The translations under genes were made by a program, and so were the position numbers. A model generated the notes under the pieces. The model did no database searches and had not been told where the DNA came from. It worked only from the letters and a program-made list of their open reading frames with translations. From Escherichia coli (GTDB taxonomy: Bacteria > Pseudomonadota > Gammaproteobacteria > Enterobacterales > Enterobacteriaceae): 64,000 nt of DNA. The stretch lies in NCBI RefSeq assembly GCF_003334385.1, contig NZ_QOWN01000026.1. One strand, written 5' to 3'. Positions 63,516 through 64,000 of this stretch are shown in pieces. How positions within the stretch are numbered: position 1 is the first letter of the stretch; every line of letters starts with the position of its first letter.

Positions 63516-63929
63516 AGAAGATGGTGCATCCGGGAGGATGACTCACTGACGTTCGCCCTTCGGGCCGTTGCTGGCGCAACGTTATCCTTCCTGGTGCCTG
63601 CGGTTAATACCGCTATCTCTTCGATACCTTCATTGCTGAAGGTTACGGAGAATATGGTGCATCCGGGAGGATTCGAACCTCCGACCGCTCGGTTCGTAGC
63701 CGAGTACTCTATCCAGCTGAGCTACGGATGCATCGGGAAAACTTATTCTACTGCTGATATTGATACCGCTACTAAAGCCATATCAATTAAGAGATGGTGC
63801 ATCCGGGAGGATTACTCGCCTTGCGGCTCGCCCTTCGGGCCGTTGCTAAAGCAACGTTATCATCCCTAGTGCCTGCGGTTAATTCCGCTACCTCTTCGAT
63901 ACCTTCATTGCTGAAGATTTCGGAGAATA
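63516..63929. repeat. Tandemly duplicated tRNA-Arg gene-plus-spacer units; each spacer carries a 17-nt copy of the tRNA 3' end
   Basis: Spacers 63516-63654 and 63788-63929 are near-identical and each begins with TGGTGCATCCGGGAGGA, which is the reverse complement of the 3' end of the adjacent tRNA-Arg. Confidence 0.75.
63655..63731 (-). tRNA. argQ: tRNA-Arg (anticodon ACG)
   Basis: 77-nt minus-strand gene GCATCCGTAGCTCAGCTGGATAGAGTACTCGGCTACGAACCGAGCGGTCGGAGGTTCGAATCCTCCCGGATGCACCA. Confidence 0.92.
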
Positions 63930-64000
63930 TGGTGCATCCGGGAGGATTCGAACCTCCGACCGCTCGGTTCGTAGCCGAGTACTCTATCCAGCTGAGCTAC
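63930..64000 (-). tRNA. argZ: tRNA-Arg (ACG), second copy, truncated at the window end
   Basis: Identical to the 3' 71 nt of the copy at 63655-63731; the 5' end lies beyond the window. Confidence 0.85.

Follow-up and report, generated by a model that had tools for sequence, protein, structure and literature searches.

The two spacers beside the tRNA-Arg genes at the end of the window (the whole 64 kb stretch analysed here) are very probably raQ and raZ, members of the tRNA-linked repeat (TLR) family in the serV-argVYZQ operon; this judgement covers the identification together with the processing and recombination account given below. The hallmark pattern seen in the window is already known, and the elements are the same thing as the described TLRs, with nothing of substance that differs. 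By the definition in PMC8144298, TLRs lie in tRNA or rRNA operons and their last 18–19 bp are identical to the 3' end of the gene that directly precedes them. The same paper credits Egan and Landy (1978) with the first sighting of the family and Rudd (1999) with its catalogue. E. coli K-12 carries 22 of them at ten loci (PMC8144298). The arg elements are among those catalogued, as the strain table of the same paper names 'argY/Z/Q, raQ/Z/V' at the arg locus among 22 deleted TLRs.

The element 3' of argQ, raQ (its EcoGene name; here E3), measures 133 nt from the base following the CCA to the pseudo-CCA (63522..63654, minus strand), and the element 3' of argZ, raZ (E2), measures 135 nt (63795..63929, minus strand). 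Each begins at the base right after the CCA of its gene, on the same strand and inside serV-argVYZQ, and is thus placed directly 3' of a stable-RNA gene in a stable-RNA operon. The last bases of each are those of the upstream gene's 3' end, CCA included, over 18 nt in E3 and 19 nt in both E2 and E1.

Homology to other TLRs was assessed with a covariance model trained only on TLRs of Lys operons, which was used to score the window elements and further TLRs. It matched E3 with 67.9 bits (E 2e-16) and E2 with 62.1 bits (E 8.7e-15), and also recovered the tyrT RtT as well as Pro, Glu and 5S-linked copies; the 5S-linked copy recognised is the rrnB T1-T2 spacer. The Rfam RtT model (RF00391) aligned with the elements end to end (model positions 1-130), although at scores below its gathering score of 45 bits (E2, 31.0 bits, E 5.6e-4; E1, 29.2 bits; E3, 22.8 bits). 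The arg elements are therefore relatives, not members, of the RtT family as now modelled, and because of these sub-threshold scores the arg copies carry no annotation in RefSeq and Rfam. Literature searches on the arg gene names and 'RtT' returned nothing on the arg copies; the source that covers them is PMC8144298. To its account we add the host-matched helix P1, the short and long forms, the range outside Enterobacterales and the exact presence or absence of elements in strains.

The repeated 17-mer and its locus

The original prediction rested on a repeated 17-mer, TGGTGCATCCGGGAGGA, and the pattern is real. It occurs exactly four times in the window (plus-strand starts 63522, 63655, 63795 and 63930), against a chance expectation of about 0.01 matches, and four occurrences were reached in 0 of 100 shuffles. 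Two copies, at 63655-63671 and 63930-63946, are the genuine 3' ends of the tRNA-Arg(ACG) genes argQ and argZ on the minus strand. The other two are the pseudo 3' ends at 63522-63539 and 63795-63813, where the match to the tRNA-Arg end runs over 18 and 19 nt, respectively, with the CCA. The first copy starts at 63522 and not, as had been given, at 63516.

The final gene of the operon, argQ (tRNA-Arg, anticodon ACG; 63655..63731, minus strand), was called by ARAGORN and by the Rfam tRNA model (67.1 bits), and is annotated by RefSeq on identical DNA of K-12-type genomes. Six 5' bases of argZ (tRNA-Arg, ACG; 63930..64000, minus strand) lie beyond the window end, and the 5'-truncated gene scored 50.5 bits with the Rfam tRNA model; the complete gene is present in L001 at 3631-3707. 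Rfam matches to plastid families on the antisense strand of the tRNA genes were dismissed as artefacts. K-12-type genomes match the window end at 100% identity, in the order yqaB-argQ-argZ. Extension past the window, a check that had been suggested for counting units, gave the operon order serV-argV-element-argY-argZ-element-argQ-element; the third element (raV; E1) directly follows argV, outside the window, and argY has none.

The 5' leader of argQ (63 nt; 63732..63794, minus strand) was delimited by comparison of spacers in L001, where it equals the entire argY-argZ spacer. On this comparison the argY-argZ spacer shows the apparent form of a site without a TLR. The argZ-argQ spacer consists of the 135-nt element and the 63-nt leader and so amounts to 198 nt instead of the roughly 140 bp first stated. 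Duplication of gene plus spacer was confirmed, the unit being 275 bp, with a 173-nt stretch that recurs at 94% identity and 275-nt spacing. Each spacer does hold a copy of the tRNA 3' end as claimed, but with the genes on the minus strand the element lies 3' of its tRNA and not upstream, and the pseudo-end closes rather than opens it.

Structure of the elements and their relatives

In sequence, raZ is 87% identical to E3 and 92% to E1. The RNA fold of E3 has an energy of −49.9 kcal/mol (z −4.8) and that of E2 −50 kcal/mol (z −4.3), the z-scores of the elements ranging from −4.3 to −5.4. Two 5' hairpins are followed by a domain of 76-78 nt in which the helix P1 closes three hairpins, namely H1 (AACGUUGC..GCAACG), H2 (GCCC-GAA-GGGC) and H3, which varies. 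The 18-19 nt that repeat the T-stem and the acceptor 3' strand of tRNA-Arg make up the 3' strand of P1, and folding predicts that the ACCA stays single-stranded. In E3 the pseudo 3' end ATCCTCCCGGATGCACCA (63522..63539, minus strand; 18 nt identical to the tRNA-Arg 3' end) provides this strand and the ACCA tail, and in E2 the 3' strand is provided by AATCCTCCCGGATGCACCA (63795..63813, minus strand; 19 nt identical). The 5' strand of E3, GCACCAGGAAGGAT (63584..63597, minus strand), pairs with the pseudo 3' end in the MFE and centroid folds, in the RNAalifold consensus of 17 Arg-type elements and in the pair counts; its E2 equivalent, GCACTAGGGATGAT (63859..63872, minus strand), is found in the folds and the RNAalifold consensus. 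The 17-mer thus lies in the P1 3' strand, and the alternative named at the outset, that it belongs to a longer structure, holds in part.

Hairpin H1, which belongs to the family-wide core, reads AACGTTGC-GCCA-GCAACG in E3 (63566..63583, minus strand) and AACGTTGC-TTTA-GCAACG in E2 (63841..63858, minus strand), in both cases backed by folds, consensus and pair counts. The GC-rich hairpin GCCCTTCGGGC reported in the spacers was found and corresponds to H2, at 63555..63565 in E3 (GCCC-GAA-GGGC) and 63830..63840 in E2 (both minus strand; folds and consensus). H3 varies in sequence across the family with its pairing retained. The E2 copy (GCC-GCAA-GGC; 63818..63827, minus strand) is supported by the consensus and by compensatory changes, which in the H3 stem comprise GC 11, CG 4, AU 4 and UA 1, and the E3 counterpart (63545-63552) is degenerate. 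Confined to the Arg type is hairpin P0 (GCGG-TATTAA-CCGC), at 63600..63613 in E3 and 63875-63888 in E2 (minus strand), which appears in the folds and as a covarying stem in the consensus. The remaining 5' hairpin (ACCTTCA-GCAA-TGAAGGT; minus strand) was taken from the folds and lies at 63626..63643 in E3 and 63901-63917 in E2.

No open reading frame of at least 20 aa is confined to an element. A small protein, as formerly proposed for tyrT (tpr), was rejected on the same ground, all frames of this size in the array crossing tRNA genes. No convincing intrinsic terminator was seen at or just past raQ on the transcribed strand; only a weak hairpin follows, some 107 nt on. Inside the element, terminator-like matches come from the other strand, where H1 and P0 are read in reverse.

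In many gammaproteobacterial genera the hairpin core, about 50 nt long, stands 3' of 5S rRNA genes and of the tRNA genes for Tyr, Lys, Pro, Glu, Arg(ACG) and Arg(CCG). It hardly changes between Enterobacterales, Orbales, Oceanospirillales and Alteromonadales. The ends follow the host. Among 103 copies directly behind a tRNA, 93 carry the 14-mer of their own tRNA (one mismatch allowed) and none that of another class, and 5S-linked copies terminate in the 3' end of 5S rRNA. Within P1, a conserved closing helix, the copied end forms the 3' strand, and the 5' strand shifts with the host tRNA, being GGGGAAGGAT for Tyr, GGGAGGAT for Arg, GGGAAGAT for Arg in Hafnia, CGTGTAGGAT for Lys and GGAGAGGAT for Pro. 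The RNAalifold consensus of the 17 Arg-type elements contains 29 pairs, eight of them with compensatory changes. When Arg and Lys elements were aligned independently with MAFFT, pairing was retained in 96.5% of cells, compared with 28-57% for slid partners, and the covariation score was matched by 0 of 500 shuffles. Part of the P1 covariation could arise at the DNA level, through gene conversion of the pseudo-end by the adjacent tRNA or through template-switch correction of the inverted repeat. The motif GCCC-GAA-GGGC was imposed by the search pattern and cannot reveal covariation. Rfam's published RtT pairing of CCCGAAGGG with an upstream CUUCG is absent in the Lys, Pro and Arg forms, and GCCC-GAA-GGGC was therefore treated as a local hairpin.

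The closest comparison is with RtT RNA, the rtT/rttR of the tyrT-tyrV operon, which reportedly goes back to Bosl and Kersten in 1991. RtT and the arg elements share the core (AACGTTGC..GCAACG, GCCCGAAGGG, a variable hairpin and GAGTMATCC), and both end in the 3' end of the host tRNA. The arg elements are short forms that lack the segment of about 45 nt found in RtT between the P1 5' strand and H1. That segment consists of a copy of the 5' half of the T-arm and one hairpin. The arg elements also have two unrelated 5' hairpins. The tyrT members of the TLR family are the Rfam RtT RNA. RrA, RrB and RrF, the 5S-linked TLRs between terminators T1 and T2 of rrnA, rrnB and rrnD (PMC8144298), likewise contain the core module and repeat the host 3' end at their own 3' end. 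They differ in having 5S rRNA as host, in their GGA motifs and in binding CsrA and Hfq in vitro; unlike them, the TLRs of tRNA operons, the arg ones included, are predicted non-binders of CsrA (PMC8144298).

Strain variation and the origin of the elements

The comparison of copy number across strains, also suggested originally, was carried out on sampled E. coli genomes, which contain two, three or four tRNA-Arg genes and one to three elements in the array. Strains differ by the exact gain or loss of whole units, and whole elements are absent precisely between the true and the pseudo 3' end, as at argY in K-12 and at the last gene in strain 99_0849. The direct repeats of 18-19 bp and the 275-bp units serve as substrates for unequal exchange, by which elements and tRNA genes are added or removed whole, as the strain comparison shows. 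The idea that the unit stems from unequal crossover was thereby upheld for the copy-number variation (two to four genes, one to three elements, exact losses), but it leaves the origin of the elements unexplained.

Four further readings bear on that origin. After integration at a tRNA gene, the inserted DNA is flanked by direct repeats, with a second, displaced copy of the tRNA 3' end at its distal junction. Direct repeats of the tRNA 3' end around extra DNA, and filled and empty sites among strains, are what would be seen if the pseudo 3' ends were scars of phages or islands once integrated in tRNA-Arg genes. Such phage and island repeats bound kilobases and an integrase, whereas the arg repeats bound 115 nt of conserved hairpins without genes, all open reading frames there crossing tRNA genes. 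No integrase island bounded by a tRNA 3' repeat was found at the array, and none of 120 loci showed a longer island with an integrase at the tRNA of the element. The phage and plasmid collections yielded mainly mislabelled chromosomal records and no convincing relative, two short records (a phage entry of 7.4 kb and a plasmid of 14 kb) being left aside. The core is moreover found in several orders, often as tandem copies, 3' of 5S rRNA and of no fewer than six other tRNA species, and the repeat sits in a conserved helix with compensatory changes. Integration scars are thus extremely improbable, and the likeness to integrative elements drawn in the original prediction does not stand for elements of 133-135 nt whose core is common to many hosts. 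Hardly more credible is an origin as decayed tRNA-Arg pseudogenes, old members of the array. The 3' domain of 76-78 nt is of tRNA size, with a closing stem, three hairpins and an ACCA tail, and its last 18-19 nt are tRNA-Arg sequence; yet neither ARAGORN nor the Rfam tRNA model calls the elements, in which neither a cloverleaf nor a tRNA body sequence was found, and the interior is shared with Tyr-, Lys-, Pro-, Glu- and 5S-linked copies and not with tRNA-Arg. Aligned semi-globally to the tRNA-Arg body, the 70 nt that precede the module in the E. coli arg elements scored no better than 1000 shuffles. A full-length decayed tRNA-Arg with an insertion, tried in view of a visual likeness to acceptor and D-arm, was discarded on the same test (z 0.4-0.7, p 0.25-0.34), in which the Yersinia nurmii element alone contained a clear piece of tRNA-Arg body (z 7.6). 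It is improbable, too, that unequal crossover or tandem duplication left the elements behind as functionless by-products, with a duplication endpoint that chanced to fall inside the tRNA. The periodic 275-bp unit and the variation in copy number between strains would fit, and no function is known for TLRs, a TLR-free strain having been built (PMC8144298). A plain tandem duplication from the T-loop should, however, run out in spacer; an isolated pseudo 3' end would not be its product. The core is common to non-homologous operons, each copy bearing the end of its own host, it is nearly invariant over the four orders named above, and the stems stay paired through double changes.

A larger, though still minor, share of probability goes to the core as a present or former mobile module that inserts in the 3' part of stable-RNA genes and duplicates or splits the host 3' end, the arg copies being shortened descendants. 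The insertion point in tRNAs would be the T-loop between TTCGA and ATCC. GTTCGA directly precedes the module in 56 of 63 long-form elements, with host-specific T-stem bases as well in 49. In six genera the module sits precisely in the T-loop of an entire tRNA-Tyr-like body, in which 57-61 of 66 bases are identical, and the Yersinia Arg element contains 24 nt of tRNA-Arg body up to TTCGA (z 7.6). In the 5S-linked copies a duplicated 5S 3' region is split likewise, tandem arrays of the module occur in Pectobacterium at a distance from tRNA genes, and E. coli has exact filled and empty sites. Against this, the module comes with no transposase, integrase or reverse transcriptase, a "target duplication" of 18-19 bp is atypical of transposable elements, deletion between direct repeats explains the empty sites equally well, outside the last 19 nt the likeness of the E. 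coli arg elements to the tRNA-Arg body is not significant (z 0.4-0.7), and the loci are syntenic and apparently vertically inherited. That the TLR core is an autonomous structured module, repeatedly grafted into duplicated 3' parts of stable RNAs (at the TTCGA/ATCC T-loop in tRNAs and at an equivalent point of the terminal helix region in 5S), is likewise put forward only tentatively, as an unlikely proposition. We conclude that unequal crossover between known TLR units accounts for the copy-number variation and not for the origin of the elements.

Proposed processing and role

In the account that accompanies the TLR identification, raQ and raZ would be co-transcribed with the tRNAs from the minus strand. 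The copied end would duplicate the determinants of tRNA 3' maturation, that is, an RNase E cut just downstream and exonucleolytic trimming to the CCA. A single cleavage could then free the tRNA and make the 5' end of the element, while the equivalent reaction at the pseudo-end would generate its 3' end together with the free leader of the next tRNA. The element would be freed as a discrete RNA of about 130 nt, shielded by helix P1. By analogy with the tyrT and rrn relatives, release of raQ and raZ as discrete, stable RNAs is most likely. The ends of RrA, RrB and RrF were mapped beside RNase E sites; in RrB the 5' end is at an RNase E site 3 nt past 5S and the 3' end 3 nt past the repeated 18 bp, and northern blots showed discrete RNAs (PMC8144298). 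For the tyrT rtT, too, the literature shows release as a discrete RNA. At tyrT the RefSeq annotations of RtT stop exactly at the pseudo-CCA, as does the Rfam RtT model, and in Actinobacillus northern signals were obtained from RtT homologues adjoining Asn and Lys tRNA genes (PMC4986893). The 3'ETS-leuZ of glyW-cysT-leuZ is similar as an RNase E-released by-product RNA of tRNA-operon processing (cited in PMC8144298), but it is a sponge of RyhB and RybB and has no copy of a tRNA 3' end, no TLR core and no sequence relation.

The released RNAs might further act in trans, either as tRNA-end mimics or decoys for 3'-end enzymes or as protein- or RNA-binding sRNAs in the manner of RrA, RrB and RrF. 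This role would complement the processing account and does not compete with it. P1 with its free ACCA resembles an acceptor/T-arm minihelix, the core and its pairing are strongly conserved, and the Hfq and CsrA binding of the 5S-linked RNAs in vitro (PMC8144298) is in line with it. We nevertheless hold a role in trans to be rather unlikely, given that the 19 TLRs of tRNA operons scored <0.01 in the CsrA-binding predictor of that study and that the early claim of an involvement of rtT in the stringent response has since been withdrawn (PMC8144298). TLRs are dispensable in the laboratory, since a strain without any of the 22 was constructed (PMC8144298); the existing deletion at the arg locus takes out tRNA genes along with their TLRs.

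For the window itself the finding is of little significance, being a long-known feature of the best-studied bacterial genome. It is of use for annotation, as RefSeq and Rfam label none but the tyrT copies as RtT and leave unlabelled, owing to their sub-threshold scores, the arg copies and the Lys-, Pro-, Glu- and 5S-linked copies of other genera. TLRs have gone for more than 40 years without a function, in spite of a nearly invariant core, a helix that tracks the host and relatives that are released as discrete RNAs, which makes them a modest but real question. Should the core after all be a grafted module, each TLR would be a host-matched mimic of an acceptor/T-arm, made of P1 and a free NCCA, and selection acting on the RNA, not gene conversion alone, would maintain the match. 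TLRs would then be tRNA-end mimics across the gammaproteobacteria with a specific mechanism of insertion or maintenance, and may have a role such as buffering or reporting 3'-end processing activity.

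Layout and strain variation of the tRNA-Arg array

Within the last 480 bases of the window, the minus strand carries two tRNA-Arg(ACG) genes, of which one is complete (63655-63731) and the other (63930-64000) is six bases short where the window stops. A 173-nt stretch is repeated at a spacing of 275 nt with 94% identity. The GC-rich hairpin GCCCTTCGGGC is present at 63555-63565 and 63830-63840. Across the 64 kb, the tRNA-terminal 17-mer has exactly four matches (63522, 63655, 63795 and 63930), against about 0.01 expected by chance. Two of these sites are genuine tRNA 3' ends and two are extra copies of 18 and 19 nt with the CCA included. 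The tRNA-Arg 3'-end pseudo-copies and the repeated unit of the original prediction were thus recovered, the first copy starting at 63522 and not at 63516, but its layout had to be inverted. Since both genes are read from the minus strand, each element of 133-135 nt lies downstream of its own tRNA (raQ behind argQ, 63522-63654; raZ behind argZ, 63795-63929) and terminates in the pseudo 3' end, instead of beginning with it upstream of a gene. The 198-nt argZ-argQ spacer consists of a 135-nt element and a 63-nt leader. This leader (at 63760-63771) and the regions of the 5' hairpin P0 in the elements (63604-63615, 63879-63890) have the 12-nt stretch TTGATACCGCTA (plus strand) in common; the leader may be the remnant of a further element. 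Sub-threshold Rfam matches to plastid 'ycf2 5'UTR' and 'psbI-rps4' and an ARAGORN call of tRNA-Arg(tcg) were found antisense to tRNA genes (63657-63731 and 63932-64000, plus strand; 4030-4101 in L001, a complete E. coli arg locus identical to the window end) and were rejected as artefacts of tRNA self-complementarity.

K-12-type E. coli genomes match the window end at 100% identity and show the order yqaA-yqaB-tRNA-Arg-tRNA-Arg. On the transcribed strand of an identical complete genome, a promoter-like TTGACT-16-TAATAT is followed by serV, 3 nt, argV, the element raV plus leader (198 nt), argY, leader only (62 nt), argZ, raZ plus leader (198 nt), argQ, raQ, about 147 nt and yqaB. The full array has three elements, not two, with pairwise identities of 86-92%, and argY is without one. 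The sole terminator-like hairpin after the array (63401-63415, minus strand; ACGCTAAAGTAGCGT then CATATTTTTC) is weak and lies about 107 nt past raQ, immediately ahead of the yqaB start, so that transcription read-through into yqaBA seems possible. Elsewhere in the window, at 23487-23849 and over the next 4 kb, ypjA comes directly after the tmRNA gene ssrA, an arrangement common to 2,433 genomes at at least 99% identity. Prophage CP4-57, which fills this site in MG1655, is absent; the source is thus a strain other than MG1655, even with an arg region identical to that of K-12-type strains.

The K-12 arrangement aligned over at least 80% in one place in just 2,585 of 5,426 complete E. coli genomes. 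It comprises four tRNA-Arg genes and three elements (after genes 1, 3 and 4); O104:H4 2011C-3493 has two genes and two elements, GE3 three and two, 99_0849 three and two (the last gene without), and SRCC 1675 (locus L125) four genes with one complete and one truncated element. In 99_0849, TCTTCTCCCAAAAATTTCC stands directly behind the last tRNA, while elsewhere it comes after the pseudo-CCA, and the 62-nt argY-argZ spacer of K-12 is a bare leader; strain differences among the sampled genomes therefore end exactly at the 18-19 bp direct repeat or comprise whole 275-bp units. The 102-nt spacer after the third tRNA-Arg of SRCC 1675 joins the first ~35 nt of the element (TATTCTCCGTAATCATCAGTGATGATGG...) to the leader, which indicates a deletion without use of the 18-bp repeats. 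The unequal crossover originally proposed fits this variation, but leaves the presence of the same core in unrelated operons unexplained.

The copied 3' end and the closing helix

The arg elements fold with −50 to −60 kcal/mol (z −4.3 to −5.4 versus shuffled sequence). The predicted fold has two 5' hairpins and then a closing helix, P1, that encloses three further hairpins (H1, H2, H3), with ACCA unpaired. P1 is formed by GCACC-A-GGGAGGAU and AUCCUCCC-GG-A-UGC, and the closing stem of this 3' domain of 76-78 nt resembles a stacked acceptor/T-arm helix. With 17 Arg-type elements from different genera RNAalifold returned the same structure (29 pairs, eight with compensatory changes). In a second alignment, made with MAFFT from Arg and Lys elements, 96.5% of the cells were paired versus 28-57% with slid partners, and none of 500 shuffles reached the covariation score. 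The 5' strand of P1 varies with the host class (Tyr GGGGAAGGAT, Arg GGGAGGAT, Lys CGTGTAGGAT, Pro GGAGAGGAT), and in Hafnia, Serratia and Pantoea, where tRNA-Arg differs, the pseudo-end and its P1 partner strand both differ too. Hence, the copied 3' end is a component of a conserved structure, and the 17-mer, first read as a duplication, belongs to this longer structure, an outcome that the original prediction had itself named as contrary to it. tRNA gene conversion and DNA-level inverted-repeat correction could mimic part of the P1 covariation signal.

Family membership and origin of the core

Rfam RtT, a model built on the tyrT copies, gives end-to-end alignments to each of the three elements (31.0, 29.2 and 22.8 bits for raZ, raV and raQ; gathering score 45). 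RefSeq annotates four RtT copies at tyrTV and none at the arg locus. Common to the arg and tyr elements is the layout AACGTTGC-nnnn-GCAACG, GRCCCGAAGGGYGA, a short variable hairpin and GAGTMATCC. A covariance model with ten Lys-operon elements as sole input matched the window elements at 67.9 bits (E 2e-16) and 62.1 bits (E 9e-15), with no further match anywhere in the window, and likewise matched tyrT, Pro, Glu and 5S-linked copies. Scanning one genome per species with the 19-nt core gave at least 120 loci. Among the matches listed, genes for tRNA-Tyr, Lys, Arg(ACG), Arg(CCG), Pro(CGG), Pro(TGG) and Glu precede the core by 47-124 nt, in Enterobacterales, Orbales (Gilliamella), Oceanospirillales (Marinobacterium, Amphritea) and Alteromonadales (Aestuariibacter); the host tRNA's own 14-mer (at most one mismatch) was present in 93 of the 103 copies directly behind a tRNA and that of another tRNA class in none. 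Copies behind 5S rRNA genes terminate in AACTGCCAGGCAT, the 5S 3' end.

The likeness to partial tRNA duplications left by integrative elements did not hold. The elements contain no genes, have no convincing relatives in mobile DNA (phage and plasmid collections) and share a conserved structure behind many host genes, so that such scars are in practice excluded. Duplication debris alone would account for the strain variation, but not for the conservation. A decayed tRNA-Arg pseudogene is contradicted by an alignment test.

At the level of the family, the core might descend from a module that was once mobile and entered the T-loop within a duplicated 3' portion of a tRNA; we consider this unlikely despite several observations in its favor. 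GTTCGA stands just ahead of the module in 56 of 63 long-form elements. In six genera a complete tRNA-Tyr-like body (57-61 of 66 bases identical) is the first gene behind the tyrT promoter (retrieved loci L068, 131-275, from Phytobacter; L003, L011, L036, L114, L121). It carries the module exactly in the T-loop after GGTTCGA, lacks the acceptor 3' strand and in several cases has its anticodon altered to GCA; body plus module give an RtT call of 78.7 bits. The duplicated 5S end is split alike in the 5S-linked copies (L013, L023, L043, L064, L075, L077-L079), where the module is surrounded by the 5S 3' region in two forms, inverted (GGCAGTTCACTACTC) and direct but split (GAGAGTAGGAC ... AAACTGCCAGGCAT), and the repeat continues beyond the end of 5S, reaching into the region of the RNase E site (CAAATTAAG); one 5S-linked copy matches Rfam AaHKsRNA22 (RF02902) at 34 bits, below threshold. 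Pectobacterium (L098, 790-907; L021; L020; L099) has H1-H2-H3 plus TCAT in tandem units of ~74 nt, intergenic, with no nearby tRNA or rRNA gene and without a copied tRNA end. Against a mobile origin, no enzyme is associated with the module, and the arg copies of E. coli, which are short forms, show no such traces of T-loop insertion.

Known tRNA-linked repeats and a proposed processing model

The family of tRNA-linked repeats (TLRs) was described by Stenum et al. (Front Microbiol 2021; PMC8144298), as being without known function. That paper traces the earliest sighting to Egan and Landy in 1978 and 22 copies at ten K-12 loci to Rudd (1999), and states that a stringent-response role of rtT, claimed in 1991, was withdrawn in 1994. 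In its strain table, a viable strain from which the 22 TLRs were deleted has 'argY/Z/Q, raQ/Z/V' among the entries; because raQ/Z/V are named there at argY/Z/Q, the window elements are raQ and raZ, TLRs that are already known and are related to RtT. The 5S-linked TLRs RrA/B/F exist as discrete RNAs whose 5' end coincides with the RNase E site 3 nt behind 5S and whose 3' end lies 3 nt past the repeated 18 bp, and the authors proposed that the repeat is recognised by RNase E (PMC8144298). Northern signals have been obtained in Actinobacillus for RtT homologues adjoining Asn and Lys tRNA genes (PMC4986893).

By analogy with rtT of tyrT and RrB, the arg elements would be co-transcribed with their tRNAs. 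The duplicated 3' end may then serve as a second set of the signals that direct cleavage by RNase E and trimming by exonucleases, through which the element would be cut out as a discrete RNA of ~130 nt capped by P1, freeing the leader of the next tRNA. The host-tracking helix, the T-loop architecture, the spread past Enterobacterales and the exact strain indels may go beyond the accessible literature; these possibly novel points bear on the TLR family, not on the array in the window.
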